Positions 15,897 through 53,357 of a DNA stretch of 64,000 nucleotides are shown here, piece by piece. The notes under the pieces were generated by a model that did not search any database, had not been told where the DNA came from, and was given only the letters and a program-made list of their open reading frames with translations. Location: the NCBI GenBank assembly GCA_964567825.1, contig CAZMNX010000002.1, positions 62,767 through 126,766 on the forward strand, read 5' to 3'. This DNA is from an uncultured Candidatus Saccharibacteria bacterium (GTDB lineage: Bacteria > Patescibacteriota > Minisyncoccia > Phycocordibacterales > GWA1-40-21). How positions within the stretch are numbered: the stretch's first letter is position 1; each line of letters opens with the position of its first letter. The translations under genes and the position numbers were made by a program.

Positions 15897-15925
15897 TTGA
15901 CAAGTCTACTGTAATCTGCTATACT
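15897..15925 (+). promoter_or_regulatory. sigma70-type promoter TTGACA-N17-TATACT for GC-rich cassette 1
   Basis: tTTGACAagtctactgtaatctgcTATACT, about 45 nt upstream of the SD-preceded GTG start. Confidence 0.55.
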
Positions 15926-15973
15926 ATCATTCTCGGTAAGAATTTCGAATAAGTTCATTGAAGGAGGCACAAC

Positions 15974-16180
15974 GTGACGAAGCTACATATAAACCCGATT
16001 CGGTTCGGGCGAGACGAAGATGGTTTCTACTGGGTTGGCGGGGTGGTTCTGGGCGTCGTCGCTCTGGCCATGGCGCTTGTCCTTGTATTGGTACCGGCAA
16101 TTCGGACCGACACAGCAATCGGTATCAACCTGCTGACCGGTGCACTCAGCGTCGCGATGTTCAACCTGGTCGGCACCTGA
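15974..16180 (+). CDS. small (68 aa) membrane protein, GC-rich cassette 1
   Basis: GAAGGAGG SD 6 nt before GTG; product MTKLHINPIRFGRDEDGFYWVGGVVLGVVALAMALVLVLVPAI... with 1-2 TM helices; ~62% GC against ~38% flanks; own terminator. Confidence 0.5.
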   Translation: MTKLHINPIRFGRDEDGFYWVGGVVLGVVALAMALVLVLVPAIRTDTAIGINLLTGALSVAMFNLVGT

Positions 16181-16201
16181 TGAAGGTGTGCGGCGACACG
16201 A

Positions 16202-16239
16202 AGGCGGGCTTCCAAACGGAGGCTCGCCTGTTCTTTTGC
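16202..16239 (+). terminator. intrinsic terminator (AGGCGGGC...GCTCGCCT + GTTCTTTTG)
   Basis: 8-bp stem (one mismatch) then U-rich tract directly after the stop of the 68-aa ORF. Confidence 0.6.
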
Positions 16240-16243
16240 CAAA

Positions 16244-17071
16244 TTATTTACCCTTCTTCCCTATTACAATCTTATCGCCAAAACGTAAGTCAATATAATT
16301 AATTTTATCAGCACCAGCAACTAAATCTAATTCCCCGGCTTTAATCGCGGTGAATAAATTTTGAAATGCCAAATCAAAAGCAACTTTACTATTAAAAATA
16401 ATGACCGGCCCCGACTCGAGATAGAAACGATAATCAAAGTTATCGAAAGACACGGCCAGCACACGCAAATTATTTCGATCTAGTAGATCAACTAAACCGT
16501 AAATCTGTTCGTAAGTATTTGTTTCCAGAAAAAAACTACCGATCGAGCTGGTGGCGGCCAGTGGCCCATAACCTCGAACAAAAATATTATTTGAAAAAGT
16601 TGAAGCCTCGTTATAAATATAACCGGTTTTATCTACCAAAAAACAAGTTTGTTCTTTTTCCTTATAATCATTACCGCACCAAACTGAATGAGGTCTTCGT
16701 TCAGTAATCTTGACCGTGATCTCTTGCCACTTGGTCCAAGAAATTTTTACGGTATTTATTGTTTTCAAATTATTTAGCAAATCAGCCTTGATTTGAAACC
16801 GAGGGAAAATCAGAAAATTACGTCGAGAAAAAAGCCCTAAATAACGCCCGGAAAGGTCCGCATTAACGAGCTCTAAAACTTCGGCATTAGAAACCGCAGC
16901 ATTACCGGAAATTTTTATATCTTTAATAACAATCTCATCCTGACCAGAGACAATCGCTAAACTAATTAAAATAATCAGCAGTAAAAATAGAACAATAACA
17001 AAACGAACCCAAAAAAGACGTCTCTTTTTTGCTCTCACTGTCGAAGGACCTAAATTAGGATTTCTTTTCAT
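16244..17071 (-). CDS. ftsQ: cell division protein FtsQ/DivIB-like (N-terminal TM + POTRA)
   Basis: Basic N-terminus, single TM (FVIVLFLLLIILISLAIV), then IKDIKISGNAAVSNAEVLELV POTRA-like block. Confidence 0.65.
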   Translation of the reverse strand: MKRNPNLGPSTVRAKKRRLFWVRFVIVLFLLLIILISLAIVSGQDEIVIKDIKISGNAAVSNAEVLELVNADLSGRYLGLFSRRNFLIFPRFQIKADLLNNLKTINTVKISWTKWQEITVKITERRPHSVWCGNDYKEKEQTCFLVDKTGYIYNEASTFSNNIFVRGYGPLAATSSIGSFFLETNTYEQIYGLVDLLDRNNLRVLAVSFDNFDYRFYLESGPVIIFNSKVAFDLAFQNLFTAIKAGELDLVAGADKINYIDLRFGDKIVIGKKGK

Positions 17072-19402: not shown

Positions 19403-19834
19403 ATGAAGCTCATTAATCGGCGGTGGATAATCGCCCTAATGCTCGTGTTTGTGCTTGGTGGGGCCGGCTGCGAAGGTGAAGATGAGGATAGCTACAGCAG
19501 CAATCCGAGCTACAACGACCCGCCCTATCAAAACACGACGCGACGGATCCAAGTCCATGTGTTCAACGGCTCGTACGGTTACGTCGATCAGTTCGGCTTT
19601 TGGACCGGCATGGTCCTCGTCGAAATCGAGAAGGCGCCGTACGCCAACCTTCGGCCAGGTGAAAGCACCTACGTTCCGAAGGACCTGTACAGTCACGACG
19701 ATAAACTGGTCCTGCACTTCACAGAGCAGGCATCGGGTATGGTTTGGGAAGTCGCCTTCGGTGATCGCTATCAGTACTACAGCGTCACCCTGCACGGTGA
19801 CGGTCGTCCACCAACTCTCGAACCGCCACCCTGA
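19403..19834 (+). CDS. secreted/lipoprotein-like protein (143 aa), GC-rich cassette 2
   Basis: SD GAGAGAAAGG; signal peptide MKLINRRWIIALMLVFVLGGAGC with Cys at the cleavage region; mature part rich in Tyr/Asp/Pro; ~60% GC. Confidence 0.55.
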   Translation: MKLINRRWIIALMLVFVLGGAGCEGEDEDSYSSNPSYNDPPYQNTTRRIQVHVFNGSYGYVDQFGFWTGMVLVEIEKAPYANLRPGESTYVPKDLYSHDDKLVLHFTEQASGMVWEVAFGDRYQYYSVTLHGDGRPPTLEPPP

Positions 19835-19853
19835 ACCGGTGGCCGAGAAAAAA

Positions 19854-19883
19854 AGGCAAGCGAGTGTGACGCTTGCCTTTTTT
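19854..19883 (+). terminator. intrinsic terminator (AGGCAAGCG-agtgtga-CGCTTGCCT + T6)
   Basis: Perfect 9-bp stem followed by TTTTTT immediately after the cassette-2 stop codon. Confidence 0.7.
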
Positions 19884-19967
19884 AGCACATTTTTTATCTT
19901 CGTTTTTATCCACATTTGCTAAAAAAGTGAAAAGCGTGTAATACTAAAAGCCAAGCAAATAAATTTT

Positions 19968-22787: not shown

Positions 22788-22815
22788 AGGGCAGATCGAA
22801 CGAATCGATACGAGT

Positions 22816-22860
22816 GGCGTTGGTGAGGTCCCCGCGGACCTTGCCAACGCCGCTTTTTTA
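22816..22860 (+). terminator. intrinsic terminator (GGCGTTGG...CCAACGCC + GCTTTTTTA)
   Basis: 8-bp stem with 20-nt GC-rich loop followed by U-tract after the NUDIX stop. Confidence 0.65.
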
Positions 22861-27571: not shown

Positions 27572-27631
27572 AGCTTCGAAATAGTAACAAAAAAACTAAC
27601 AAAAAACCAGCTACGGGCCGGTTTTTCTGTT

Positions 27632-31773: not shown

Positions 31774-32676
31774 TTAAATCCATTTGGATGAGTCCGGCAT
31801 CAAATCCCCATCTAACGAAAGAATATTCCTGGATTTAAGTTCCTCGACAAGAAGTAAAAAGTTATTATTGTACTTCGGCATATGGGCAACGCCTGAGCCA
31901 AGGGTGTCTGAATACAGCTCGAAATTAAATGAGGAGGACATGCTTCTAATAAAGGCCAGGAAAGAATCGGCCTTGGAAGACAAGATAAATTTAATTACCC
32001 TCATATTTGTTGCAAAGTGTCCGGTTAAAATTATCTCCTTAATACCGTCAAGATTCTTGACCCAGGCGTTATTCATGACACTCTCAATCTCCGGCCCGAC
32101 GTTTGATTTATCCGACTCTAGGGATCCAATATATAAACAATAAAGCTCCTTAACTCCTTGGGTCTTTAAAAAATCCTCAGCCTTCTTTTCAATTGAGCCG
32201 GTAATACGTAAATCATCTATAAATATTACTCTTTTGCCCTTCAAGAGATCTGGAATACTATACAAATGTATATCATCATTCTGTGAAAATCGACTAACTT
32301 TATCAAGTGTACCATAATCCCCCTCAACTAATGTATCATTAAATATTGGCAAAATAGGAATTGGCATTTTACCCAAAAGATCAAGATGATTATTAATTGT
32401 AGTTTGAAAATACTTTGCGATCACCGCTGCACCCTTCGGCACATGTTTATATGGAGCAGTTACAATAACAAAATCTGTTTGATTTTCTGACTCAAGGAAC
32501 AGACTACCGTAGGTTTTTATAAACAACCTAGCCAAATCAACCCCGTATTGAGCGCCGACAATCGTATCACCATACTTAAATCGACTGTATAGTTTTATAT
32601 CAAAAATAGAGCCGTTGATAGTCTGAATGTCGCTGGCAATTACCTTTATTGGATATAGTGATAAATTTTTTTTCAT
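31774..32676 (-). CDS. phosphoribosyltransferase (PRTase)-like domain protein, paralog 1
   Basis: PRPP-binding-like motif GKRVIFIDDLRITGS; paralogous to 33370-34281 (shared YSRFKYG, VIVTAPY/LVLTTSPY, GKxVIxxDDxRITG, PEIExxMN blocks). Confidence 0.55.
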   Translation of the reverse strand: MKKNLSLYPIKVIASDIQTINGSIFDIKLYSRFKYGDTIVGAQYGVDLARLFIKTYGSLFLESENQTDFVIVTAPYKHVPKGAAVIAKYFQTTINNHLDLLGKMPIPILPIFNDTLVEGDYGTLDKVSRFSQNDDIHLYSIPDLLKGKRVIFIDDLRITGSIEKKAEDFLKTQGVKELYCLYIGSLESDKSNVGPEIESVMNNAWVKNLDGIKEIILTGHFATNMRVIKFILSSKADSFLAFIRSMSSSFNFELYSDTLGSGVAHMPKYNNNFLLLVEELKSRNILSLDGDLMPDSSKWI

Positions 32677-33365
32677 TAGATTAATTTAATCAAATCAGAA
32701 ATTCTACTAATAGATTTTACGTCGTTACCTGAATTTGCACTGTCGATGTCAAACAATTGAGCCTGACATCCAGCTTCAATTGCCCCGCGATAATCCGTGA
32801 CAAAATTATTACCAACATGTAATATCTCCCCGGCTTTAATTCCGGCAATTTGTGCTAATGACTCAAACATTCTCGGGTCGGGTTTTCCCGCACCTACTTC
32901 ATCTGAAAATACAGTGTAATCAATAATGTCTAAAAGACCCAAACTCGAAAGCGCATTTCTCATTGTTTTTCCAATAATAAAGCCCGTATTACTCAGTAGA
33001 GCAATCTTGAACTTTTTTGCTTTAATTTCTTTTAAAGTCTCCGGCAAATCCTTCTCGATTAATAGTGGCAGATTCTCTAGAAAAACTGATTCGAAGATAC
33101 TCTTCACTTTATTAATAATCTCCAAATTAGCCTTTTTGCCTGTTAAGCGCTCAATCAAGGTAATTATTCGAACGTCACCAGATAAATCCTGGCCAGTTGT
33201 TTCGGTAATTGTTTCTAGTTCTCGGCCAATGTCCCTGGCGGCATTAGCAATTAACTTTTCATCTAGACTTAATAGTTCTGATAAAAGTTTTGATCTTTTT
33301 ATTTTATTCTCAGGATTACCAACTAAAATAGTGTCCCAGACGTCTAAACTTATAAGTTTAATCAT
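32676..33365 (-). CDS. HAD-superfamily hydrolase (phosphatase)
   Basis: Motif I LDVWDT (DxDx[TV]), motif IV GNNFVTDYRGAIEAGCQA (GDxxxD-like), Rossmannoid layout. Confidence 0.7.
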   Translation of the reverse strand: MIKLISLDVWDTILVGNPENKIKRSKLLSELLSLDEKLIANAARDIGRELETITETTGQDLSGDVRIITLIERLTGKKANLEIINKVKSIFESVFLENLPLLIEKDLPETLKEIKAKKFKIALLSNTGFIIGKTMRNALSSLGLLDIIDYTVFSDEVGAGKPDPRMFESLAQIAGIKAGEILHVGNNFVTDYRGAIEAGCQAQLFDIDSANSGNDVKSISRISDLIKLI

Positions 33366-33369
33366 AATT

Positions 33370-34281
33370 TTAAAAGAAAATAGAAACAGCCGCTTGCCGT
33401 AATAAGAAAGTAAATTGCGAAAATCTTGAAGCTAGGCTAATCTTATTTTCTCTCAACTTTATTTCGTCACGAACCAATGAAAAACCGGCTTGATATTTAT
33501 CCATAAAGCCATAGCCATCATTCACAGATGAAATATAAAGATCAGACAAAACATCGTCGGATATCTTTTTTAGGAAGCTTTTAAGTTCTAGCAAATTACC
33601 CCAAGAGAGAACGAAGCGGCAAACTCGAGCGTTTAAAATATATTCCTCAGGATTTCTCATCAAAGCTGAGAGTCGATCGAGGGAATTAATCTTGGTATGA
33701 TTCATTTTATTTTCAATCTCTGGATCTTTTTTACCAGTTTTAACATCAATTACATAAAGAAAAATTATTTCGGCAACGCCAGATTTTTCCAAATAACTAA
33801 TTGTCTTTTTTTCATGAGCACCAGTAATTCTCGAGTCTTCCACAAGAATAACAGTCTTGCCCTTAACCGAATCTTGATCAACAGAAAGAGAATCTTTCTT
33901 CATATTTATTTCTCGCTCTTTAGCACTCAGTTTTCCAAAGTCACAGGACGGAGCTGATGAACGATTAATTTTTACAAACGGTAAGGCGTTATGGCCACTC
34001 TCTAAAAGCAATTCGTTCAGGAAATAGTGAACATTAACCGCCAATGAGTGAGCTGAGGGTGGAGTATGCCAATATGGTGAAGTTGTTAAAACTAAATTAT
34101 CTTTATTTAAAGTAAGATTTTTAAAAGAGTAAACTTTTAAAAATTCCGCAGCCATCTTTTTTGCAAACTTAATAACCGTTGGCTTGTAACCATACTTAAA
34201 AGTGCTATATTCCTCGAGGTTTAAAAACTCTTTCTTTGTTGATTTATCGAGGGTATAAGCTGAAATTCGTTTGATATTCAT
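33370..34281 (-). CDS. phosphoribosyltransferase (PRTase)-like domain protein, paralog 2
   Basis: GKTVILVEDSRITGAHEKK PRTase motif; first gene downstream of the promoter at 34332-34359. Confidence 0.55.
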   Translation of the reverse strand: MNIKRISAYTLDKSTKKEFLNLEEYSTFKYGYKPTVIKFAKKMAAEFLKVYSFKNLTLNKDNLVLTTSPYWHTPPSAHSLAVNVHYFLNELLLESGHNALPFVKINRSSAPSCDFGKLSAKEREINMKKDSLSVDQDSVKGKTVILVEDSRITGAHEKKTISYLEKSGVAEIIFLYVIDVKTGKKDPEIENKMNHTKINSLDRLSALMRNPEEYILNARVCRFVLSWGNLLELKSFLKKISDDVLSDLYISSVNDGYGFMDKYQAGFSLVRDEIKLRENKISLASRFSQFTFLLRQAAVSIFF

Positions 34282-34331
34282 TATTATTCTGCTACTAGTA
34301 AATCCGTTAAAATCTGGACTTAATGCTGGGT

Positions 34332-34359
34332 ATTATAGCAAATCTATTGGATTTGTCAA
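34332..34359 (-). promoter_or_regulatory. sigma70-type promoter TTGACA-N16-TATAAT (extended -10 TGcTATAAT) driving the PRTase-HAD-PRTase operon; copy A of a duplicated 33-nt element
   Basis: Minus strand cTTGACAaatccaatagatttgcTATAATaccc. The plus-strand 33-mer GGGTATTATAGCAAATCTATTGGATTTGTCAAG (34328-34360) recurs with 2 mismatches at 39497-39529. Confidence 0.6.
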
Positions 34360-34390
34360 GCCTAAATTGACACAATATGGAAATTTAGGC
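34360..34390. promoter_or_regulatory. perfect 9-bp inverted repeat GCCTAAATT-N13-AATTTAGGC abutting the -35 of the promoter above (candidate regulator binding site)
   Basis: Inverted repeat lies immediately upstream (on minus strand) of the -35 hexamer; not followed by a U-tract so unlikely to be a terminator. Confidence 0.35.
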
Positions 34391-34497
34391 AAATAAAGAG
34401 ACCCCCGACCCTCACCGAAACTTGCGTTCAGATGAGAGAAGGGGGCCTCGGGGTTGAATGTACTCTTCCCAGCCTCAGGCTGGGGGTTGGGGCTCGG

Positions 34498-35298
34498 TTA
34501 GGCCACCGCCGGAGCGGGGGCCGCATTGAGCCACTTCACGAGCTCGTCGCCGATGAGCTCCGCATTGAGCTCGTCGTCGGGCTTGCTGGTGAAGGCCGGC
34601 AGGTCGCGAATGATGACCAGGCCGGTATTGTCGAACATGTCGGCGATCTTCTGCAGGAACTTGAACTGGCCGCCCTGGTTCGAGTACGCCAGGAAGAGGA
34701 AGTAGACCTCGTCCCCCCGGCCCTGACTCGCGCGGAGCACCTGCTCCACCCGACCCTCGTCGCTGCAGTCACCGTCGGTGACAAACAGAACCAAGGAGCG
34801 TTCCTTCTTGACCGCCGCCGGCGCCGACGCCGACTGCTGATTCCCGCCACCACCGAAGGTACGGGAGAAGAATCCGCTCTTCCTGGGCGCCGCCGGCTGA
34901 TTGCCGTTCGGCAGCCAGCCGAAGTGACGCAGGTTGGCTTCCAGCACATAGCTGTAGTCCGTCCCGCCGCGGTAGCCCGGCACCTTCTCGATGATTTCGC
35001 GCTTGATGTAGCCCTCAACGTTCGCCGGAGTCACCGTCCCGACATGGTGAACGCGCTGTTCACCGTTCGAGAAGGTGAAGACGTCGATCTCGCCGTTGGC
35101 GTCGAACGTGATCCCCCACGGGATCAGGCGCGTCATCAGATCGTTCGTCATCCCGTCACGATGCTCGTCATCGAACGAGCCGGACACGTCCATGTCCATC
35201 ACGACTTGGGCGCGCAGCCGGCTCAGATCCACACCGAGCTTCGTCAACGTCAAACGCAGACTTTCCGCGGACTTCTGAATGTTCAACTTGATGGCCAT
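34498..35298 (-). CDS. von Willebrand factor A domain protein (TerY-like)
   Basis: MIDAS DMDVSGS and downstream VLFVTDGD vWA motifs; SD AAGGAGTG; GC-rich; 2-nt gap to upstream gene (operon). Confidence 0.65.
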   Translation of the reverse strand: MAIKLNIQKSAESLRLTLTKLGVDLSRLRAQVVMDMDVSGSFDDEHRDGMTNDLMTRLIPWGITFDANGEIDVFTFSNGEQRVHHVGTVTPANVEGYIKREIIEKVPGYRGGTDYSYVLEANLRHFGWLPNGNQPAAPRKSGFFSRTFGGGGNQQSASAPAAVKKERSLVLFVTDGDCSDEGRVEQVLRASQGRGDEVYFLFLAYSNQGGQFKFLQKIADMFDNTGLVIIRDLPAFTSKPDDELNAELIGDELVKWLNAAPAPAVA

Positions 35299-35300
35299 GG

Positions 35301-36389
35301 TTAGGCACTCCTTAATTTTCCGATCACTGCACTGACTAGGTCACCCACCTCACTGACTTGGGTGACACTTGGTTTGTTTCCTCTCCGAGCCAAAAGCTGC
35401 AAAGCAGCCAGGCTGTTGAGCATGGTCGGCACCGTTACCAGTGCCAAGTCTTGCGCAACTTCAATGAGTTGAAGAGGTTGTTCGATTTGTAACTTACGGA
35501 CCGAACTACCGCCGACAATCTCAGCCGTCGTAGCTGTGAGACTCACCACCCGCCCCGAAAGGCGACCAGCAACGTCTCGCTTCCCAATTGATTCCAGGTG
35601 TTCAGCGATGTGCGCGCCAGCCAAAGCCAACGCATTAACCTCATCACCAACCTCTAGGGTGCGGGTCGAGATCAACTCGATTTGCCCCCTCAAGGCCAGC
35701 AACTTCGGAACATCATCACTGATGATCTTCGCAATCTGATCAATCTCCTCTAGTGCCCTTTCGAGCTCTTCGAGTGAATCGACCTCTGCTGAAGATTTCT
35801 TGATCGCTCGAGCGAGGAAACCCTCCCCACCTTTTTGAGCGAACACCTTGTCCAGCTTGATGGAACCTAGGATCTCGATCAGGCGTCCGACACGTCGGCT
35901 AACCTGATTAAGTGTCTCGGAACGCGACAAAGCGAGGACCTCCGACATCAGCCCGCTGTACTGCTTTTGCACTTCCGTGCCCCACATCACAGCGCTCTGC
36001 TCCGTAGCCCTTTCCGCAATGAAGCTTTCGACCAAGTGCACCACGCGCTCGATCGTTTCCACCTTCTGGGTTTTCCCCTGCAAATTGGCACTGGTGATCG
36101 GAATCCTCTTCCGAACTTCACCGATCCCAATCACAGAGGGTTTACCTACCGGCACGATTGCCGGCTTGACCACCGCCTGAACCGTATTCGACGGTATCGC
36201 GGTTGGTTTCAAGTTTTCCACCTTCCCCGGCGTTCCAGGAATGGCGGTCGGCTTGGTGGCCTGCCCTTGCGGACAAACTCCCATCACCGTAGGCTTGATG
36301 GACCCGCCGCCCGACGGAATAACCGTCGGACGACGAATCACTGTTGCTTCTCCCGGCACGAAGCCGGAAGTTTTCTCTCCTCCCGGCAC
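35301..36389 (-). CDS. coiled-coil protein, TelA-like / toxic-anion-resistance-associated (tentative)
   Basis: GTG start with strong SD AAGGAGG; Pro/Thr-rich N-terminus followed by long helical repeats; sits between TerD and the vWA gene. Confidence 0.4.
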   Translation of the reverse strand: MPGGEKTSGFVPGEATVIRRPTVIPSGGGSIKPTVMGVCPQGQATKPTAIPGTPGKVENLKPTAIPSNTVQAVVKPAIVPVGKPSVIGIGEVRKRIPITSANLQGKTQKVETIERVVHLVESFIAERATEQSAVMWGTEVQKQYSGLMSEVLALSRSETLNQVSRRVGRLIEILGSIKLDKVFAQKGGEGFLARAIKKSSAEVDSLEELERALEEIDQIAKIISDDVPKLLALRGQIELISTRTLEVGDEVNALALAGAHIAEHLESIGKRDVAGRLSGRVVSLTATTAEIVGGSSVRKLQIEQPLQLIEVAQDLALVTVPTMLNSLAALQLLARRGNKPSVTQVSEVGDLVSAVIGKLRSA

Positions 36390-36424
36390 TGATGCCTCCT
36401 TTTGTTGGCGTCGTTCTCAGACGC

Positions 36425-37042
36425 TTAAGAGAAGAAGCCGAGGATCGTGTTGAAATCCCCGACGAAACCGCTGCCGACGGCCGCGTAATCCCAGCCGCCC
36501 GTGGCGTTGCGGATCATGCTGCCCATCTGCACGCAGTTGAATGCTCCGAACTCATTCGTGAGCCCGAAGCTGCCGAGAACCTTCCCGGCTTCGTCCTTGA
36601 TCGTAATCGAGGCCTCCTTGACCTCGGTGAACGTGACATTGCGACCCGACTTGTCGTAGATCGTGACGAAGATCGGGATCTCGTTGACTTCCGGCGCAAC
36701 CCGCGACGTGTCAATCGTGATCACTTCATCGACGCCCTGGGACCGACCGTCGCGCTTGTCGCCGGAGTGAAGCAGAGCCCCACACGGCGTACCAAACGAA
36801 CCGTCGGCATTGCGCTTCAAAGCGCCGCCCACCGTGTTCAGGTTGAAAACGCTGAGCACCTTTTCGAGCGTATCGATCTTGGCGCCGCTGCCGTCATTGA
36901 CGCACAGCAACGCATTGGCATCGAGATCGTGGGGCGAATCCCAGGCCAACTCGGCCATGAACTTCCCACCCTTCGACAGGTTGAGGGACAACTTCATCCC
37001 CGCAACCCCATCCTTCTTCAACGGCAAGGACAACTTACTCAT
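36425..37042 (-). CDS. terD: TerD-family stress protein
   Basis: LSLNLSKGGKF...AWDSPHDLDANALL...GALLHSGDKRDG...DEVITID...PIFVTIYD...GGWDYAAVGSG match TerD/TerZ/TerE signatures. The start is likely the ATG at 37042 (SD GGAGAAG), not the ORF-track start at 37105. Confidence 0.8.
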   Translation of the reverse strand: MSKLSLPLKKDGVAGMKLSLNLSKGGKFMAELAWDSPHDLDANALLCVNDGSGAKIDTLEKVLSVFNLNTVGGALKRNADGSFGTPCGALLHSGDKRDGRSQGVDEVITIDTSRVAPEVNEIPIFVTIYDKSGRNVTFTEVKEASITIKDEAGKVLGSFGLTNEFGAFNCVQMGSMIRNATGGWDYAAVGSGFVGDFNTILGFFS

Positions 37043-37121
37043 GACTGCTTCTCCATTTCTGCCTCTCGGCATCGAACTTGCAGCCCTTAACGGGCCGCCG
37101 AACATTTACCACACACAATCA

Positions 37122-38363
37122 TCACAACTGCGCAACTTCCGGCTGACTGGCCGAAAGCTCTGCCAAAACCGCGCGCGCCTTTTGAAAGCGCCCTTTGGCC
37201 TCGGCAAACTTCTTCTGCGTCTCCGCCCTTGCGAGCGAAACCGCTTGATGGATTTCCTCCGTCTCGCGAATGATGCCTTCGATCTGCGCGACTTGCGCCA
37301 GGCGATTCTCGCCCGGTGCCACCGCAGCTGTGACCGACGCATCACGTACGATTTGGCCGCGCGCCCGAATCAAGGTCTGATCCAGACTAGCGGCACTCGA
37401 CGAAAGATTCTGCAGGCTCTTCACCCGCAGGGCGGAATTTACGCTGAGCAGGGTCATCTTGATACTGGCGAAGCGGCTCGAGGCCGTCGTCAAGGTCTCA
37501 CCCAGCGTCGAAACGCCGGCGACCTGAATATCGCGAATGACTTGCTGATCAGCCGGCAACCGCGTGTACACACCCTCCAAGGCCAGTGCCCGGCTCTGAA
37601 GGAACTGGAGTTTGATGTCCAGCTCTTCGATTTCCGAACGAGCCTCAAGGCTGGTGTTTCCACTCAGCGCCTGCTTCCGCTCAGCCACCTGCTGCGTCGC
37701 CTTGGCCACGAAGGCCTCGGCTACCGCCGCAATGAGAGCGAAGTTCTGCCAGTGCACCCGATAGGCCTGCTTCAGCTGTTCGACATTCTGAAGTTCCGCA
37801 ATCAAGCGGGTCACCTCATCCTGCAGTTCAGCCTGAAGCCTGGCCAATTCCTCCGAGAGATCCTTGGTCTTCCCGGAGAGACGGACACGCACTTTTTCGA
37901 GCGTTTCCTGAAGCAGGGTCGCGGGGCTTTTCCCATTAAGCCGGCCGATCAGGCGATTGCCCAAACTCGGCTTGGCCTTCTGGGCCTCCTCGATAATCCC
38001 CTCCAGGTCGGCATCCTTGACTTCCTTCTGCAGGCGGTCAAAGAGCGCAAAAACGGACGCTGCCGTGTTCTTGTCCAGTTTGGCCAAGAAGCCGTCGAGC
38101 GTGGTATTCAAACCAGCCTCGGCCTCCGAACCCAACAGGACAATCTCCTGCCCGTGCATGGTCAGAATGTTCAAACTGGCGAGCATTTGCCCTGCCGGCT
38201 TGAGCTGTTCCTCCGAGATGACAATGGTGCCACCCGAAAAAGGAACTGCTGACGACGCACGAACGAGAGATGTAGATCCAGCCTCGACCACTTCCACCGG
38301 CGCCGTCGTAACGGCACCGAGAACGGTCGGCTTAAAACCCACATTTACTGTCATATAATTCAC
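37122..38363 (-). CDS. TelA-like toxic anion resistance protein (coiled-coil)
   Basis: 413-aa all-helical protein with TelA-like size and heptad repeats, in a TerC-TelA-TerD arrangement resembling known Ter operons; start GTG 38363 or ATG 38354 after SD AGGAGTG. Confidence 0.5.
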   Translation of the reverse strand: MNYMTVNVGFKPTVLGAVTTAPVEVVEAGSTSLVRASSAVPFSGGTIVISEEQLKPAGQMLASLNILTMHGQEIVLLGSEAEAGLNTTLDGFLAKLDKNTAASVFALFDRLQKEVKDADLEGIIEEAQKAKPSLGNRLIGRLNGKSPATLLQETLEKVRVRLSGKTKDLSEELARLQAELQDEVTRLIAELQNVEQLKQAYRVHWQNFALIAAVAEAFVAKATQQVAERKQALSGNTSLEARSEIEELDIKLQFLQSRALALEGVYTRLPADQQVIRDIQVAGVSTLGETLTTASSRFASIKMTLLSVNSALRVKSLQNLSSSAASLDQTLIRARGQIVRDASVTAAVAPGENRLAQVAQIEGIIRETEEIHQAVSLARAETQKKFAEAKGRFQKARAVLAELSASQPEVAQL

Positions 38364-38558
38364 ACTCCTAACTTTTATCTCGCTATTTACTTGTCAAAGG
38401 ACCACAGATCTTGTCTTTTTCCTATGACTCCTCTGCCAAGTATCGTTCGCTTTCACAAGCAAAACCACAATACCTGGGTAGAGGAGGCAAGATTCACCGA
38501 CTTGCCTCAGGAAAATTTCGGGGAGCTTACGCTCCGTTGTTGATGTCAATCGGGTTAG

Positions 38559-39425
38559 TTAGAGTGCCGTCGTCGAGCGCAAATCGCGCAAGGCAACGAA
38601 CAGCTTACGCGCGCCACGAGCCGACATAGTCAGCGGCAGCAGCACGTAGTACAGGACGCGATCCAGGACCTCAAGAATTCGGACACCAACCTTGACGGCG
38701 GGCCCGAGAACTTTTTGGACGATGGTCAATTCACTGTACGCGATGCTTGTCGCGGTGATGATCAGAATGCCGATCATCTTTTGCCAGCTTTCGATCTGGC
38801 AGTGTACACCGCACATTTCGAAACCGAGCTCGGTCAGCAGGATCAGTCCCACGAAACCCACCAGCATGAACGCTGTGTATTTGAGCACGGGGAACCGCTC
38901 GATCAGGCGGATGCAAATTCCCGCCACGAACCGCAGCGCCAAGATGCCGATGAAGACACCGGTGCAGATAACCCACAGACGTTTGTCCAGGGCCACGGCT
39001 GCCACGACGTTATCAATCGACAGCGAGAGATCCATGATCTCGATCTGGATGATCGTGAGCAGGAACCCCTTAACCAGCTTCTTGCCGGTCACACCGTCGA
39101 TCTCTTCTTCGGTCTTCTTGGTCAGATGCTCCGCCGCGAGGTAGAGCAAATAGGCCGCGCCGACGAGCTTCAACCAGTAATTCTGGCTGATGTACGCTGC
39201 CAGTCCGAGACAGATGCCCCGGAAAAGGTACGCGCCGATGATCCCATACCGCAAGGCTTTCTTCTGCTGATGTTTCGGCAAAGCCGAAGCCATGGCCGCG
39301 ATGGCCATAGCGTTATCGACCGAGAGCAAGCCCTCGATGATAATCAGCGAAAAGATGATCGGCAGGGCCGAAACCAACTCAGCCTGACCCGGAATATGGG
39401 CCAAAATGGCATTGATCAGATTCAA
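38559..39425 (-). CDS. terC: TerC-family integral membrane protein
   Basis: TTG start preceded by SD AAGAGGA. Duplicated LSVDNAMAIAAMA and LSIDNVVAAVALD TerC motifs. Several TM segments (about 7). Confidence 0.85.
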   Translation of the reverse strand: MNLINAILAHIPGQAELVSALPIIFSLIIIEGLLSVDNAMAIAAMASALPKHQQKKALRYGIIGAYLFRGICLGLAAYISQNYWLKLVGAAYLLYLAAEHLTKKTEEEIDGVTGKKLVKGFLLTIIQIEIMDLSLSIDNVVAAVALDKRLWVICTGVFIGILALRFVAGICIRLIERFPVLKYTAFMLVGFVGLILLTELGFEMCGVHCQIESWQKMIGILIITATSIAYSELTIVQKVLGPAVKVGVRILEVLDRVLYYVLLPLTMSARGARKLFVALRDLRSTTAL

Positions 39426-39499
39426 GCTTTCCTCTTTCTACCGTTGTTTTGCAACGGATTTTAGACACACAACAATGTCAACTTCACTTTCTAACGGGT

Positions 39500-39527
39500 A
39501 TTATAGCAAATCTATTGCGTTTGTCAA
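39500..39527 (-). promoter_or_regulatory. sigma70-type promoter TTGACA-N16-TATAAT driving terC; copy B of the duplicated 33-nt element
   Basis: Minus strand cTTGACAaacgcaatagatttgcTATAATaccc; the ~75-nt 5'UTR contains hairpin CCGTTG-caaaa-CAACGG before the SD. Confidence 0.65.
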
Positions 39528-39560
39528 GTATAATAGTGACAAAGGAGAAATGTGGGTTAT

Positions 39561-39594
39561 AAAAAAAACGTCTCGCGGGTGGGCCCGCGAGACG
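39561..39594 (-). terminator. intrinsic terminator (CGTCTCGCGGG-ccca-CCCGCGAGACG + T8 on minus strand)
   Basis: Perfect 11-bp stem followed by TTTTTTTT, 28 nt after the DUF4342 stop and just upstream of the terC promoter. Confidence 0.75.
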
Positions 39595-39622
39595 ACAGAA
39601 GCCAGAAGAGCGACGCGGGTCG

Positions 39623-39877
39623 TTACTTCTTCTTCTCAACCGAGATGGTGCAGTCACCGGTGACTGCGACCAGAGCACCGACCGCCGACAGCACCGGCGC
39701 CAAGAGCACACCGGCCATGCCCGCGTAGAGCGGGAAGGTGGCGACCACCTTGCGCGCGCCGTTGCGAACCACCACCTTGCGGACGTTGCCCTCACGAATA
39801 AGATTCCGCAGCGCTTCGAGCGCTTCGGCACCCCGCTTCGTGATTTCCTCAACCACCGTTTTCTTCTTACTCGGCAT
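39623..39877 (-). CDS. DUF4342-like small protein (84 aa)
   Basis: EGNVRKVVVRNGARKVVATFPLYAGMAGVLLAPVLSAVGALVAV resembles the DUF4342 pattern (NVRRLIIR...LEIPLTAG..AGG.L.LFAPVLAALGA); SD GGAAAGGGAAAG. Confidence 0.55.
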   Translation of the reverse strand: MPSKKKTVVEEITKRGAEALEALRNLIREGNVRKVVVRNGARKVVATFPLYAGMAGVLLAPVLSAVGALVAVTGDCTISVEKKK

Positions 39878-39949
39878 CTTTCCCTTTCCAGACCGCTGTT
39901 TAGATCAAGCCCCATGCCTAATCGACAACAGTCTAAGACCAAACTGGTA

Positions 39950-39981
39950 TTATTATAAGCACAATTATTTTAAAAAGTCAA
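39950..39981 (-). promoter_or_regulatory. sigma70-type promoter (TTGACT-N18-TATAAT) for the DUF4342 gene at the right edge of the GC-rich Ter island
   Basis: Minus strand gTTGACTttttaaaataattgtgcTTATAATaatacc. Confidence 0.5.
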
Positions 39982-46206: not shown

Positions 46207-46626
46207 TATTTTTTTTAATTAAGAATTATTAAATTAGTTCTCTATTCTGCACTATTTTCGTCAAAATAGCAAGACTCTTAGCTATTAGGTTAAGCCAAAT
46301 TATTTTCAGGCCTGAAATAGCCTTATATTACAACACCTATTGACTTATCCCCAGTCAATCCTTGACGGGTCTTGATACCTCTGTAGTATTAATAATATGA
46401 ATAGAAAATATTCACAGCTTAATAAGAACTGGAACACCGACTGCGTCGGCTTTATTGCCATGTCAGTCCATAATCCATTTTTGTTTAGCCGTGATATTTT
46501 TAGAAGCTCGCGCAGAGCATAAAAATCTCCCCCTCTGATTTTAGAAGGATCTCGGCTAAACGAAAGCCGAGATTCTTTCGTATAGCAGTTCTTTGACAAA
46601 CCAAAATCTCAAATGGAGTAAGACAG

Positions 46627-47825
46627 TGAAAGCGAAAAAAATCGTAGCGGCCTATTACCTCATCTCGGCCCTGACAAGTGGCAGTATGGGGTTCATCATG
46701 GGAGTTTACAGCAACTTCCTACGGTCCGGTGGTCTTGATGAATTCTGGGTCAACACGGTGAACGTCATTTATTTTATGACGATCACTCTCTGTGAAATTC
46801 CGACTGGCCTTTTTGCCGACATCTTCGGCCGAAAGAATTCAATCGTTATTTCCTGTCTCTTGGAGGCAGTGTCCTGTGGTGTCTACGGTCTGTCCAGAGG
46901 TTTCGGTGGTTTTGCGATCGCTGAAACAATTGGCGCCGTTGGCCGAACTTTCGCCAGCGGAGCATTCGATGCTTGGTTGGTGGACAGTCTAAAAGCTAAC
47001 GGCGAAGATCACAACATAAAAAAGATCTTCGCCAAACGCAGTTTAATTTCACGAATGGCGGTGATCGCAACGGCCCTAGCGGGAGGCTGGCTTGGCGACA
47101 AAGGACTTAATCTACCCTTCTTCATGAGCAGCTTACTGTTCTTGATTACGGGTTTGATTGTCCTACTTGTTATGAAGGAAAAAAACTTTGTGAGACAAAA
47201 GTTTTCTCTCAAAGCGGGTTTGGTAGAAATGAAACAGACCTGGCAGAAAAGCCTAACCTTCGCCAAGAAGGATTTGAACTTTCGCTTTGTTCTCATTATT
47301 AGCGGGGTGCAAACATTTGCGATGATGGCCCCGAATATGGAATGGCAAAAGCTCTTTTCCAACCTTGGCTTCAGTAACTCGCACAATGGCATCATTGCCG
47401 GAGTAATCAACATAACACTAATGGCTGGAGCGGTGCTGTCGAGCCGGATTGACTGGCTAATAAAGGAAGAAAAAAACCAGATGGTTTGGTCTCAGGTGTT
47501 AATCGGTCTGTGTGTGATCTTGACCGCCACCTGCCATCAAATTTATCCGGTAGTAACTTTCTTCTTACTCCATGAGCTCTGTCGCGGAATGGCTGATCCA
47601 ATCATGGACTCATACGTTCAAAAATGCATCGTCTCACCTAAGGAGAGAGCGACTCTTTCTTCCTTTGGTTCGATGATCAAGCATTTTGGCGGCGCTTTGG
47701 GATTATTGGTCTCCGGTTTGATCGCTAAACTGGCCGGCATAAACGCCGCCTGGATAGTGTCCGGATCGCTCATGATCATTGCTAGCCTTTGGGTAGCAAA
47801 AAATCACGCGCAAAAATCAAAGTAG
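46627..47825 (+). CDS. MFS transporter
   Basis: 12-TM layout with MFS motif GLFADIFGRKNS. The start is likely GTG 46627 (SD GGAGT 8 nt upstream) rather than the ORF-track TTG at 46593. Confidence 0.8.
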
Positions 47826-47861
47826 TAACCAGGGTCGTCCGCTCATACCGGACGACTCTTT

Positions 47862-51244: not shown

Positions 51245-52153
51245 CTAGTTTTGCAGAGAAATCAAGCTCACGGCCTTAGTAATAAACGGCAAAATATCGC
51301 CGTAAGTTTTAATATCTTGGAGATCAGTTAATTTAAACCAGCGAGCTTCGTCGAGACCGCCGTTATCTTTCTCTAGAGCTAATTCTTTATAATCAGCCTT
51401 AGCTAAAAAGTAAGCTACTTGTTTACGAATTTTACCTTTCTCGGGATGATTGGCGACATACTCATTGCGACCAATTTCATCCAGCACCTGAACGTCCAGG
51501 CCTATTTCTTCTTTTATTTCTCTCTTAGTACCCTCTTGCTCATTTTCCTCAGCTTCTAATCGCCCCTTGGATAAAGTCCAATAGCCAAAAACATCATGAA
51601 CTAGAGCCAGATAATAGTGGCCATCATTTTGAGCATAAACGACGGCTCCGCCCAATCTTTCAATTGGCATTTGCTCATAAGGAATATCGGCAATAGCTTT
51701 TTTCTTTTTCGGCGAAACAGCATCTTTATCTGGCTCACCTAATTCTTTATAAACCGAGCCCAAAACTCCGTTCACAAATTTACTGCTCTTTTCACCACCA
51801 TAGTTTTTGGATAATTCGATTGCTTCATTTATAGCCACCTTAGCTGGTACTTCTTTAGAATCAGCAAAAAGTAATTCGTATAAACCGATGCGCAAAATAT
51901 TTCGATCAATAATAGAAATTTTATCTAATGGCCAATCGGGTGCCGCCTTTTCAATCACTAAATCAATTTCTTTTCTTTTCTGTAAAACACCGTTTAAGAG
52001 AGAGTTAACAAAATTATTATCAATAACATCGTTGGCAAATTCCGCCGCATTACGCAAAAGGATCTCTTCAGATTCGTTTTCTGGAGTATTTCGAAAATCA
52101 AGCTCAAAGAGAGATTGAAGGACTATGGATCTTGCAATGTGCCTATTTGCCAT
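51245..52153 (-). CDS. nusB: NusB antitermination factor fused to a C-terminal NUDIX hydrolase domain
   Basis: N-terminal ~140 aa NusB (RSIVLQSLFELDF...VPAKVAINEAIELSK) then Nudix box GRLEAEENEQEGTKREIKEEIGL. Confidence 0.75.
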   Translation of the reverse strand: MANRHIARSIVLQSLFELDFRNTPENESEEILLRNAAEFANDVIDNNFVNSLLNGVLQKRKEIDLVIEKAAPDWPLDKISIIDRNILRIGLYELLFADSKEVPAKVAINEAIELSKNYGGEKSSKFVNGVLGSVYKELGEPDKDAVSPKKKKAIADIPYEQMPIERLGGAVVYAQNDGHYYLALVHDVFGYWTLSKGRLEAEENEQEGTKREIKEEIGLDVQVLDEIGRNEYVANHPEKGKIRKQVAYFLAKADYKELALEKDNGGLDEARWFKLTDLQDIKTYGDILPFITKAVSLISLQN

Positions 52154-52263
52154 TTAAATAACTGATCATTAACTTAACTGGTGAAAATTATATACTAAAC
52201 CAGACAAAAAAACAAACAATATTTAAAAATCCCCAACCATTTCTTTTGGAGGGGATTCTTAAT

Positions 52264-52491
52264 TTATTTAGTAGCTTCTTTCTTTGCTTTGAGTTTCTTC
52301 TCCGCCTTAGCAATTTTAGCACCAACATCAATGACCACTCGGCCATTGTATTTGCCGCAGTTCAAGCAAACCTTATGATTTAGTCTTTTAGTACCACAAT
52401 CTGGACAAACAGAAAGATCCGCCGCCTTTAAAGCATGATGGGATCGAACGCTCCCACGCTGGGAACGATTATGTCGCATGTGATTTACCAT
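52264..52491 (-). CDS. rpmF: 50S ribosomal protein L32 with C4 zinc ribbon
   Basis: MRHNRSQRGSVRSHHALKA L32 N-terminal signature, CPDCG...CLNCG ribbon; true start may be ATG at 52479. Confidence 0.75.
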   Translation of the reverse strand: MVNHMRHNRSQRGSVRSHHALKAADLSVCPDCGTKRLNHKVCLNCGKYNGRVVIDVGAKIAKAEKKLKAKKEATK

Positions 52492-52604
52492 GAGGGCTAT
52501 CTTAGCATATTAGAGATAAAAAGCAATATTCAAGCAGCTAAAGAGGCCGTCCACATTCCTGTGTCCGGCCTCTCGTCAAGAACTTCGTTCAATCCTCCTC
52601 GTGC

Positions 52605-53240
52605 TTAATCCATGAACTGAATCGGGCAATTTCCGCGACCCATCATGGCCTGCTGGCTGTGCGGATTCCGGAGAATCTCTCCGTACCGGCGCTGCACCGG
52701 CTCGAACTGTCTCGCCAGATGCTTCAGCACCCGGAAGAGAACGGCCCGATGAAAAGGCTGTCCGCGCTCGAGCATCCGCTGCCAGAGCTCGCCTGCCTCC
52801 ACAAACTCCGGAACACCCAAGAGCTCATCACCCTTTTCCCACTTCGGCTGCTTGCGCAGGCGCGAGAGACTCTCCGGGCTCAGCTTCATAACGAACACGC
52901 ACTTGTCGTGCCATTCCGCCTCCTTGTCGGCATCGCCAGGGACCCGACTCACCAGGGACGGCAGCGGTTCGCCAGCTGCATCGCGCGGACCGAGCGCTTG
53001 AATGTCGAAACCCTCCGGATTGTCCGGGGTCTCGCACAACTCACGCACGACACCGTTAGCCGCCGTCATCCAGCGGGTCTCGCCCGGTTCTCCGCCCTCC
53101 GTCGGGAATTTCCACGAACTGAATGGCTGACGGCCCGGACGATGCTTCGTATACACGAAAGCGATCATTTCGATCTCGCCGGGATTCTTACCCTTACGGA
53201 TGACCACCATGGTGGCCGCATGACTGATCTTCTCGCTCAT
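52605..53240 (-). CDS. NUDIX-like fold protein (degenerate Nudix box), GC-rich cassette 7
   Basis: WKFPTEGGEPGETRWMTAANGVVRELCE resembles W.FPGG.E.GE...AA.RE..EE with an insertion; SD GGAG 7 nt before ATG; ~62% GC; plus-strand overlapping ORF rejected. Confidence 0.4.
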   Translation of the reverse strand: MSEKISHAATMVVIRKGKNPGEIEMIAFVYTKHRPGRQPFSSWKFPTEGGEPGETRWMTAANGVVRELCETPDNPEGFDIQALGPRDAAGEPLPSLVSRVPGDADKEAEWHDKCVFVMKLSPESLSRLRKQPKWEKGDELLGVPEFVEAGELWQRMLERGQPFHRAVLFRVLKHLARQFEPVQRRYGEILRNPHSQQAMMGRGNCPIQFMD

Positions 53241-53328
53241 CGCGATCTCCGATCCTCGATTGCTCGAGTGTTTCGAACGTTGTTGTCATAGGTTTACCCA
53301 CACGGGAAACCTAACCTACCTGCCACAA

Positions 53329-53357
53329 TTATACACCCAAAGGGGTAAAATGTCAAG
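53329..53357 (-). promoter_or_regulatory. consensus sigma70 promoter TTGACA-N17-TATAAT for cassette 7, overlapping the rnhB stop codon
   Basis: Minus strand cTTGACAttttacccctttgggtgTATAATtgtggc; shares TTTGGGTGTATAAT..GTGGC with the cassette-2 promoter. Confidence 0.6.

Follow-up and report, generated by a model that had tools for sequence, protein, structure and literature searches.

GC-rich gene units between core genes of an AT-rich Paceibacteria chromosome: recent arrivals or a maintained compositional state?

Why should the AT-rich chromosome of an ultra-small bacterium carry, in the gaps between its core genes, small blocks of DNA that look as if they belonged to another genome? The window analysed here, a stretch of 64 kb with 41.1% GC overall, comes from a Paceibacteria (CPR/Patescibacteria) chromosome in which the original prediction had recognised seven abrupt GC jumps, and all seven were recovered at matching positions. 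Per-gene composition separates the 14 genes of these segments, hereafter cassettes C1 to C7 (GC 0.51-0.62, GC3 0.61-0.85), from the backbone, where 58 of 59 genes have a GC of 0.29-0.44 and a GC3 of 0.22-0.43. GC3 is thus bimodal, with zero overlap between the cassettes and the main backbone group, and GC1 and GC2 are elevated in the cassettes too. The foreign-type signature that had been proposed is distinguishable from the host once computed: three cassette sets correlate in codon usage at r=0.82-0.85 with one another and at r=-0.36 to -0.41 with the host, NCG codons being favoured. Cassette codon usage correlates at r=0.75-0.87 with GC-rich non-CPR contigs versus r=0.13-0.61 with GC-rich Paceibacteria. 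Dinucleotide odds also differ from those of the backbone (e.g. TA 0.45 vs 0.78), and spacers within cassettes are 45-54% GC vs 37% for host intergenic DNA. The backbone exception is an MFS transporter gene (46593-47825; GC 0.47, GC3 0.55), whose plus-strand unit (46593..47859, terminator at 47831-47859) is an intermediate and possible eighth case.

The seven segments make up nine autonomous transcription units. Four cassettes are single-gene units on the plus strand. C1 (15897..16232) consists of a TTGACA-17-TATACT promoter with TG (15897-25), the Shine-Dalgarno sequence GAAGGAGG, a two-helix membrane peptide of 68 aa (15974-16180; GC3 0.67) and a terminator hairpin (16202-16229). C2 (19334..19885) has a 12/12 promoter (19334-62), a gene for a lipoprotein-like protein of 143 aa (19403-19834; GC3 0.67) and a terminator (~19847-19885). 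C3 (22193..22855) carries TTGACA with a weak -10, the Shine-Dalgarno sequence GGAGG, a NUDIX protein of 166 aa (22287-22787; GC3 0.61) and a terminator with a 20-bp stem (22812-22855). C6 (44917..45500) has a TTGACC-17-TAAAGT promoter, a 5'UTR hairpin observed by eye, a 148-aa protein of an unnamed family of ~145 aa (45002-45448; GC3 0.65) and a terminator hairpin (~45469-45500).

The remaining cassettes lie on the minus strand. C4 (27850..29772) is read from a TTGCTA-17-TATATT promoter with TG (29744-72) through C4c, a membrane-anchored Pro/Thr-rich protein of 100 aa (29338-29640), and C4b, a secreted all-beta protein of 333 aa (28278-29279; GC3 0.81; terminator 28184-28219), followed by C4a, a membrane peptide of 61 aa (27915-28100) that has a TTGACA promoter and a terminator to itself. 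The products of C1, C2 and C4 are envelope or surface proteins. C5 begins with a unit (39569..39981) encoding an 84-aa DUF4342 protein (39623-39877; GC3 0.78; Pfam) between a TTGACT-18-TATAAT promoter (39952-81) and a terminator (39569-39594). Its second unit, the Ter operon (34366..39533; GC3 0.61-0.85), starts at a promoter-operator (39496-39533) and encodes, in order, TerC (38559-39425), protein X of 413 aa (37122-38363), TerD (36425-37042; the mechanical ORF extends to 37105), the TelA-like protein Y of 362 aa (35301-36389) and a vWA-TerF-like protein (34498-35298). C7 (52560..53356) comprises a 12/12 promoter (53328-56), a 5'UTR of ~85 nt with a conserved hairpin, a NUDIX-fold protein of 211 aa (52605-53240; GC3 0.73) and a terminator (~52560-52592).

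The cassettes do sit between core genes as separate transcription units, as had been predicted. Among the flanking genes, Dus, DprA, Rel, RNase R, L32, RNase HII, Ala racemase, PRTase_3 and HAD were confirmed either from Pfam matches or from genes called on related contigs, and TopA is backed by 64-84% matches in 80 genomes; the gene previously called ftsQ is conserved in relatives, but Pfam gives no match for it. Hairpin terminators follow C1, C2, C3, C4b, DUF4342, C6 and C7. The claim of near-consensus sigma-70 promoters stands for most cassettes, not for each. The promoters of C1, C2, TerC, DUF4342 and C7 match TTGACA-N16-18-TATAAT at 11-12 of 12 positions, and account for five of the eight intergenic matches of at least 11/12 in the 64 kb, but those of C4 and C6 reach only 9/12 and C3 has a poor -10. 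Promoter modules are duplicated in this genome: TTTGGGTGTATAAT is common to the C2 and C7 promoters, and a 38-nt direct repeat of 89% identity (34328-34365 and 39496-39533) brackets the TerC-to-vWA operon, although flanking direct repeats had been said to be absent. Its copy at 34328-34365 (TTGACA-16-TATAAT, palindrome CAAATC-N5-GATTTG) is the promoter-operator of an adjoining minus-strand PRTase_3, HAD, PRTase_3 operon (31774..34365), the AT-rich partner of the Ter operon (GC3 0.30-0.37). The repeat is a duplicated promoter-operator and not an attachment site.

The predicted cargo was largely borne out, with TerD (PF02342, 75.6 bits vs a cut-off of 25.3; 52 homologues), TerC (PF03741, 163 bits), the vWA-TerF-like protein (PF10138, 72 bits), DUF4342 and the C3 NUDIX protein (PF00293, 26.4 bits vs 21.1) all above Pfam thresholds. 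Protein Y scores 20.7 bits as TelA-like, below the cut-off of 30, and protein X has no match in Pfam, NCBIfam or PADLOC. From these matches C5 is a putative Ter stress module composed of DUF4342, TerC, X, TerD, TelA-like Y and vWA-TerF. C7 falls below the PF00293 threshold (16.4 bits vs 21.1), but its AF2 model (pLDDT 92.7) resembles RppH, Ap4A hydrolases and DR1025, and on this model C7 is predicted to be a NUDIX-fold, hydrolase-like protein. Read from the alignment, its family keeps E48, E51 and a REL-x-E-like stretch, with spacing off the canonical GX5EX7REUXEEXGU.

Whether such genes arrived recently can be judged from their relatives, and the positional comparison covers five of the seven cassettes, C2, C3, C4, C5 and C7. 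C7 has homologues of 46-62% identity in five other genomes, in the rnhB/rpmF gap (in L103 trmD stands in the place of rnhB). All five are GC-elevated, with GC3 of 0.50 (L097-99), 0.54 (L100/101), 0.74 (L102), 0.51 (L103) and 0.55 (L104) next to flanking genes at 0.27-0.46. GC3 varies by clade within the family; GC4 is 0.79 in the window and in L102 alike. The promoter TTGACA-N17-(TTTrGGtG)TAtAAT is kept in all five genomes and the 5'UTR hairpin in the three that were aligned, with four compensatory pairs, and therefore the promoter, orthologous across genomes together with the 5'UTR, was not recently captured. In the window and three of the five, 5'UTR GC follows ORF GC3. The similarity pattern of C7 among genomes roughly parallels that of the flanking genes.

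C4b-type genes adjoin rpmG in four relatives (L002, L003, L007, L008; GC3 0.61-0.68), and in three of them the C4c position is likewise taken by a small membrane-protein gene of elevated GC; no close homologue of C4b was found among 5.8 billion proteins. Both C4b and C7 diverge more, not less, than their flanking genes. The gaps beside rpmG and before rpmF hold the same family in every relative examined, whereas those of dprA/topA and topA/rel vary, being empty or occupied by genes that are homologous or unrelated. Homologues of C3 occupy the topA/rel gap in three genomes (L055, L035, L029), a count that leaves weaker matches at three further loci unplaced, and the one in L029 is AT-rich (GC3 0.37). 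A C2 homologue lies in the dprA/topA slot of one genome (L005), AT-rich as well (GC3 0.24) and with a perfect promoter of its own. In both families, members found at one slot can therefore be either AT-rich or GC-rich, and GC-richness is not obligatory to them or to strong promoters, since these L005 and L029 homologues are AT-rich. The closest relatives of C6 have an AT-type amino-acid composition, as does most of its family.

On five further AT-rich contigs (L082, L083, L086, L088, L096) the Ter module again stands out as an island of high GC, and its more distant homologues lie on contigs of uniformly 60-69% GC. In L086, the six flanking genes that have in-frame TGA codons contain 3-12 apiece and the four Ter genes none; the module was thus transferred into that lineage, because TGA is a sense codon there and is yet absent from its Ter genes. 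The linkage with the PRTase_3 and HAD genes, which directly adjoin the Ter operon and have the promoter-operator in common with it, recurs in L083 (DNA) and on a contig of P0015 (gene calls alone). The AT-rich PRTase genes (37-54% against L083) and the Ter genes (32-60%) are equally diverged.

The recent acquisition that had been implied is not supported: related genomes of low GC carry homologous cassettes at matching loci, the situation that the original prediction had itself named as an argument against it. As relatives carry the same genes in the same slots, the five cassettes are not recent foreign insertions. On the evidence of gene comparison, C2, C3, C4, C5 and C7 are long-standing occupants of slots between core genes. 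Their homologues in relatives are usually GC-elevated too, the window copies being the most GC-rich, or tied, within each family examined. Between these genomes the fourfold sites of core genes come close to saturation (identity 0.27-0.45 vs 0.25-0.31 expected), by an estimate drawn from few such sites, located at conserved residues, and from a simple argument about relaxation. A single ancient transfer with neutral decay afterwards therefore cannot account for the composition, and the GC-rich state must be either maintained or renewed time and again.

Four other explanations were weighed. A chimeric joining of low-GC and high-GC organisms during assembly or binning is suggested by the abruptness of the switches in a metagenome-derived sequence, but the independently assembled Logan contig L081 is 100% identical to 27542-37224 (9.7 kb) over three junctions, a JGI contig holds part of the Ter module, the switches match the edges of gene units bearing promoters and terminators, and the pattern is repeated in MAGs of other studies; such an artefact has a negligible probability and is effectively refuted. 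It is only slightly less improbable that the cassettes are classical mobile elements, that is, integrase-type islands, integron cassettes or remnants of prophages or plasmids. The units are indeed small and self-contained, the 38-nt repeat surrounds the Ter operon, and only 343 bp separate a tRNA-Trp gene from the end of C4. However, Pfam scans covering ~60 of the window's 73 ORFs revealed neither integrase nor transposase, rpmG stands between the tRNA gene and C4, none of the four tRNA genes in the window adjoins a cassette edge, and the repeat also drives the PRTase operon. The 3' hairpins of the cassettes are ordinary terminators of differing sequence, and no attC-like or other repeat common to cassette ends was found. 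No relatives of the TerD or C7 type were found on viral contigs in IMG/VR, and what Ter DNA had in common with plasmids and phages was limited to fragments of 137-288 nt (65-75% identity). The predicted absence of an integrase and of a tRNA attachment site is supported, as is a lack of phage and plasmid relatives.

Recent, independent and still un-ameliorated insertions by natural transformation from one GC-rich type of donor, for example the host cell of this episymbiont, would account for the uniform codon usage of the cassettes, its anticorrelation with that of the host and its nearest match in GC-rich non-CPR contigs, for the distinct dinucleotide signature and for the top or tied GC of the window copies; the window also contains dprA, and a Ter module was clearly transferred into the TGA-as-sense lineage. 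We nevertheless regard this as unlikely, given the same-slot homologues in deeply diverged relatives with orthologous promoter and 5'UTR, a C7 similarity pattern that roughly tracks its flanks, the greater divergence of C7 and C4b than of their flanks, the AT-type relatives of C6, and C4b, which stands without a close homologue. Rather doubtful, if somewhat less so, is GC enrichment in place of native CPR genes of no foreign origin, by a force limited to the unit and of lineage-dependent strength, such as selection favouring stable, GC-rich mRNA, or GC-biased gene conversion where recombination has hot spots. The joint shift of orthologous 5'UTR and ORF GC, the clade-dependent GC3 of the C7 family, the AT-rich and GC-rich members at one slot in the C2 and C3 families, the largely AT-type C6 family and the elevated GC of cassette spacers all favour it. 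Against it stand the positive evidence of Ter transfer and the uniformly GC-rich contigs of distant Ter homologues. Moreover, high transcription does not suffice by itself, since ribosomal-protein genes are AT-rich, as is the L005 lipoprotein gene with its perfect promoter, and we know of no bacterial mechanism for a single-gene GC3 shift of 0.3-0.5.

We lean, with roughly even confidence, towards a maintained, unit-wide compositional state as more likely than seven recent insertions. The genes would have reached CPR lineages horizontally, from bacteria of higher GC, the Ter module certainly so, and have been placed behind strong sigma-70 promoters that were either resident or copied. Since then the GC-rich state, instead of decaying, may have been actively upheld, candidate forces being selection that acts across the transcript as a whole, GC-biased conversion in recombination-prone slots and recurrent allele replacement. 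The foreign-like codon usage and dinucleotide odds fit truly foreign, perhaps renewed, DNA and speak against a maintained state, as do the AT-rich homologues of C2 in L005 and of C3 in L029. Of the original interpretation, the foreign signature, the separate units and the lack of mobility genes are retained, and the implied recent acquisition is given up.

Among known systems, integron gene cassettes are likewise small, mostly one-gene units of mixed function and foreign composition; the units described here differ in having no IntI, attI, attC or array, and each has its own promoter and terminator, scattered over 38 kb. Ter (tellurite-resistance-type) stress-response clusters with a PRTase/HAD biosynthetic module were reportedly described by Anantharaman, Iyer and Aravind in 2012. 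C5 resembles them in placing TerD, TerC, vWA-TerF-like and putatively TelA-like genes beside PRTase_3 and HAD, a gene set also found in another contig, and differs in lacking TerA, TerB, TerZ, TerE and ATP-grasp genes, in being half GC-rich and half AT-rich with a duplicated promoter-operator common to both halves, and in a module order unlike that of L083. As an analogy only, eukaryotic isochores and CpG islands are also sharp higher-GC domains that last through evolution, and the NCG preference is a further parallel; here the domains are bacterial and span 0.3-5.5 kb, and the likeness is one of composition, implying no common mechanism. A further comparison is with genomic islets at hot spots of horizontal gene transfer, a concept for gaps between core genes said to go back to Oliveira and colleagues in 2017. 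As in such islets, accessory genes of deviant composition occupy core-gene gaps, mobility genes are absent, and the content of the dprA/topA and topA/rel gaps differs among relatives. Genomic islands and transferred genes reportedly make up as much as 13% of Patescibacteria genomes (PMC12455944). Unlike hot-spot islets, the cassettes stand above their AT-rich genome in GC, the units are single-gene or one operon, and the C4 and C7 slots have one family throughout the relatives examined and stay GC-elevated despite turnover at neutral sites. If the maintained-state reading is true, GC-rich DNA would have been kept over long evolutionary time in small units of an AT-rich CPR genome.

A sliding GC profile of the window showed abrupt rises at all seven places where they had been claimed, to 0.50-0.64 on a background of 0.28-0.45. 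Per-gene counts gave a GC content at third codon positions (GC3) of 0.61-0.85 for the 14 genes of these segments, hereafter cassettes C1 to C7, with GC1 and GC2 raised too, and of 0.22-0.43 for 58 of the 59 backbone genes. Codon usage of the cassettes was likewise distinct when computed (r=0.82-0.85 among cassettes, about -0.4 versus the host), the favoured codons being CCG, ACG, TCG, GCG, CTG/CTC and ATC. Dinucleotide odds in cassettes versus backbone were 0.45 versus 0.78 for TA and 0.89 versus 1.19 for CC/GG, and the median GARP/FYMINK ratio was 1.25 for cassette proteins versus 0.62 for host proteins. GC3 outliers made up 14 of the 73 window ORFs versus 29 of 1312 crude ORFs across 80 topA loci. 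A gene coding for an MFS transporter (46593-47825, plus strand) has intermediate values (GC 0.47, GC3 0.55) and a strong terminator; its unit, 46593-47859, may belong to the same class as an eighth case that has partly equilibrated.

TopA (19968-22187) is 64-84% identical to TopA from 80 Patescibacteria/Paceibacteria MAGs, which assigns the window to a CPR bacterium. Positions 1460-8612 hold an AT-rich cluster of accessory metabolism that is unusual for a reduced CPR genome, with genes for a 2-hydroxyacid dehydrogenase, two ATP-grasp/L-amino-acid-ligase-like proteins, a NUDIX protein, an aminotransferase and the alpha and beta subunits of an E1 dehydrogenase. A Logan contig of 9683 bp from an independent assembly of SRR12261225 is 100% identical to positions 27542-37224, covering most of C4, the backbone from alr to the PRTase operon and the vWA-to-TerD part of the Ter genes, and DUF4342-TerC-X-TerD (X being a 413-amino acid protein) is present on a JGI contig. 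Given these independent contigs and the same pattern in other MAGs, a chimeric assembly is rejected as an explanation.

Every cassette is self-contained, with a promoter, a Shine-Dalgarno sequence, one or more ORFs and a terminator hairpin. The flanking genes named in the original prediction were recovered as Dus, DprA, TopA, Rel, L33, Alr, PRTase_3/HAD, RNase R, L32 and RNase HII, the supposed ftsQ having no Pfam match. The near-consensus promoters attributed to most cassettes were found before C1, C2, TerC, DUF4342 and C7, those of C3, C4 and C6 being weaker matches. These five are among only eight intergenic TTGACA-N16-18-TATAAT sites matching at least 11 of 12 positions in the whole 64 kb, a sixth preceding the PRTase operon; on our estimate of ~30 host units, the enrichment before cassettes has a hypergeometric p of ~1e-3. 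Two promoter modules occur in duplicate inside the genome: a 38-nt promoter shared by the Ter and PRTase operons, and that of C2 and C7, which have the exact 14-mer TTTGGGTGTATAAT in common. A strong promoter is not what causes GC richness: in the same dprA/topA gap of a related contig (L005), the C2 homologue has a perfect promoter yet a GC3 of 0.24, and ribosomal-protein genes are AT-rich. Neither an integrase nor a transposase turned up among the ~60 of 73 window ORFs scanned, and in and around the cassettes there was no shared insertion motif, uptake-sequence-like word, attC-like repeat, enriched 6-8-mer or shared terminal repeat.

A perfect 12/12 sigma-70 match with TG also lies at 13043-13070 (plus strand), between tRNA-Gln and a PemK/MazF-like toxin gene (13128-13526, minus strand). 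Its orientation is antisense to this gene and no plus-strand ORF of at least 80 amino acids follows; a possible role is to transcribe an antisense or antitoxin RNA, or else a small gene missed by annotation. The toxin gene suggested avoidance of MazF-type cleavage sites as a further reading of the cassettes, which was rejected, as cassette mRNAs are not depleted in ACA (10.3 versus 10.1 per kb).

Five NUDIX-type genes are present in the window (3611-4063, 11751-12374, 22287-22787, 51245-52153 and 52605-53240); three are AT-rich, one of these being fused to NusB, and two are GC-rich. C3 codes for a NUDIX protein according to Pfam; it also gave the only NCBIfam matches among the cassettes, weak ones to NUDIX, and the only PADLOC match, again weak, on which known defence systems were rejected. 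Its homologues in the topA-rel gap of related genomes have GC3 values of 0.58 (L055), 0.55 (L035) and 0.37 (L029), and AT-rich paralogues stand in tandem with them; tandem NUDIX paralogues of unequal GC occur between topA and rel. The model of the C7 product is confident (pLDDT 92.7) and shows a NUDIX fold nearest to RppH and Ap4A hydrolases. C7 homologues lie before rpmF and after rnhB, or after trmD in L103, with a GC3 of 0.50 (L097-99), 0.54 (L100/101), 0.74 (L102), 0.51 (L103) and 0.55 (L104) between flanks of 0.27-0.46. The C7 promoter is orthologous in all five other genomes and the 5'UTR in the three that were aligned. This leader (53241-53325, minus strand; ~9925-10000 in L097, ~5730-5841 in L100 and ~2675-2760 in L102) contains a hairpin of 7 pairs, 4 of them with compensatory changes among 4 sequences, which begins ~13 nt past the predicted transcription start; a conserved stretch resembling ACAACAACGTTCGAA comes after it. 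The hairpin has no match in Rfam; it could be an mRNA stabiliser or a regulatory leader. In these four sequences the GC content of the 5'UTR moves with the GC3 of the ORF.

Among the other cassettes, C2 codes for a lipoprotein-like protein and C1, C4a and C4c for small membrane proteins. C4b encodes a secreted, probably all-beta protein; its single-sequence AF2 model was unusable (pLDDT 38) and a word-based search returned only C4b itself. Genes of the C4b type were located beside rpmG in L002, L003, L007 and L008, with a GC3 of 0.61-0.68, and in L002, L007 and L008 they follow a GC-elevated gene for a small membrane protein, as in the window. Their products are only 25-47% identical, versus ~80% for TopA. 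C6 belongs to a real but unnamed family of ~145 amino acids with 179 cluster representatives, its closest relatives being AT-type.

C5 has most of the features tested for a Ter cluster: DUF4342, TerC, TerD and the vWA-TerF-like protein passed Pfam thresholds, the 362-amino acid protein Y is weakly TelA-like and protein X has no family. The same linkage to PRTase_3-HAD-PRTase_3 is found in L083 and in the contig of P0015. We take this neighbouring set to be a functional part of Ter systems (Anantharaman et al. 2012). One copy of the 38-nt promoter (TTGACA-16-TATAAT with TG), at 34328-34365 on the minus strand, precedes the AT-rich PRTase operon, and the other, at 39496-39533 on the same strand, precedes the GC-rich TerC operon; the two agree at 34 of 38 positions. 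The palindrome in its spacer, CAAATC-N5-GATTTG, is probably a shared repressor operator. Contrary to the reported absence of flanking direct repeats, the two copies enclose the TerC-to-vWA operon as a direct repeat, which is a regulatory duplication and not an attachment site. A different upstream motif, GTCTAACTAATATT, is common to both modules in L083, where their order is opposite to that in the window. TerC leaders of ~300 nt in L082 (1-380) and L083 (6517-6875) share conserved blocks, e.g. TTTGTTAGA...CATTTGATT...TAACAAATC...AGTCTCGGAAGA, and may be riboswitch-like; the window leader is only 75 nt and has none of these blocks.

Where TerD identity is 50-61%, the Ter homologues stand out as GC islands on AT-rich contigs (L082, L083, L086, L088 and L096), and more distant ones reside on contigs of uniformly 60-69% GC. 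The GC3 ranking inside the module is the same everywhere, with vWA, TerD and TerC above X and Y lowest. Divergence between the window and L083 is alike for the AT-rich PRTase genes (37-54% identity) and the GC-rich Ter genes (32-60%). L086 (Ga0066602_10001360; regions 1-8700 and 8718-12407 compared) reads TGA as sense: six flanking genes, including an aspartyl-tRNA-synthetase-like gene, carry 3-12 in-frame TGA codons each and the four Ter genes carry none. This marks horizontal transfer of the module into that lineage and is a clear sign that it was recently imported from a donor with the standard code.

The original prediction of dispersed, foreign-looking genes thus stands as an observation and only partly as an interpretation, since relatives hold homologous cassettes in the same slots. 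Fourfold sites at conserved core-gene residues are 27-45% identical between the window and its relatives, with 25-31% expected at saturation; from a simple relaxation argument, we infer that each lineage retains at most ~10-40% of the ancestral neutral state. GC at fourfold sites is 0.79 for C7 in both the window and L102, and 0.64 and 0.72 for the C4b-type genes of L007 and L008, values too high for decay from one ancestral import, and the GC-rich state must therefore be maintained by a force on the units or renewed by replacement. We tentatively rank maintenance first, on the orthologous C7 promoter and UTR, the UTR-ORF correlation in GC, a C7 similarity that roughly tracks that of flanking genes, the greater, not lesser, divergence of C7 and C4b relative to their flanks, and the AT-type relatives of C6. 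Recurrent replacement, ranked below, draws on the proven mobility of the Ter module, on window copies being the most GC-rich, or tied, in each family examined, and on a uniform foreign-looking codon and dinucleotide signature closer to GC-rich non-CPR contigs (r=0.75-0.87) than to GC-rich Paceibacteria (r=0.13-0.61).

Two routes of import were rejected. Flank-mediated import from GC-rich relatives is at odds with the poor codon fit to GC-rich Paceibacteria loci and with the lack of a consistent GC3 rise at flanking core-gene ends. Against a phage or plasmid as vector, IMG/VR contigs contain no relatives of the TerD or C7 type, and plasmid and phage records give only short gene fragments of 65-75% identity. 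Under maintenance, the force would be confined to the transcribed unit. One candidate is selection on the mRNAs of envelope, nucleotide-hydrolase and stress genes to be GC-rich, structured, long-lived or independent of nucleotide pools; GC-biased conversion at recombination-prone slots is another. Our tentative and still doubtful proposal is that Paceibacteria, perhaps CPR generally, carry heritable transcription units held at a high-GC equilibrium in AT-rich chromosomes, far outlasting neutral sites.

Because foreign DNA is assumed to ameliorate to host composition, compositional outliers are routinely taken for recent horizontal transfers. Here the same families at the same slots remain GC-rich across several genomes although neutral sites there have almost fully turned over, and this persistence is the interesting residue of the observation. 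Maintenance, if true, would mean that in ultra-small symbiotic bacteria entire transcription units are subject to a force, selective or conversion-based, that has gone unrecognised, and would call for caution with GC-based island callers in CPR genomes; with a high-GC equilibrium, amelioration would not be inevitable and composition-based detection would mistake such genes for recent arrivals. Recurrent replacement would instead pinpoint hot spots and reveal a pool of GC-rich genes, possibly that of the hosts, from which these episymbionts are supplied. Either way, a few envelope, NUDIX and Ter genes with strong promoters become candidates for lifestyle roles in these uncultured organisms.

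Genomic islands and horizontal transfer are reported to account for as much as 13% of Patescibacteria genomes (PMC12455944); a literature search gave general reports of this kind, and none of genes that stay GC-rich at conserved slots. The cassettes lack the tested features of integrase islands, prophages and integrons, and the pattern as a whole is best classed as an unusual kind of compositional islet in core-gene gaps. On the tentative proposal of a high-GC equilibrium, the units would correspond to isochores, in bacteria and at the size of genes.
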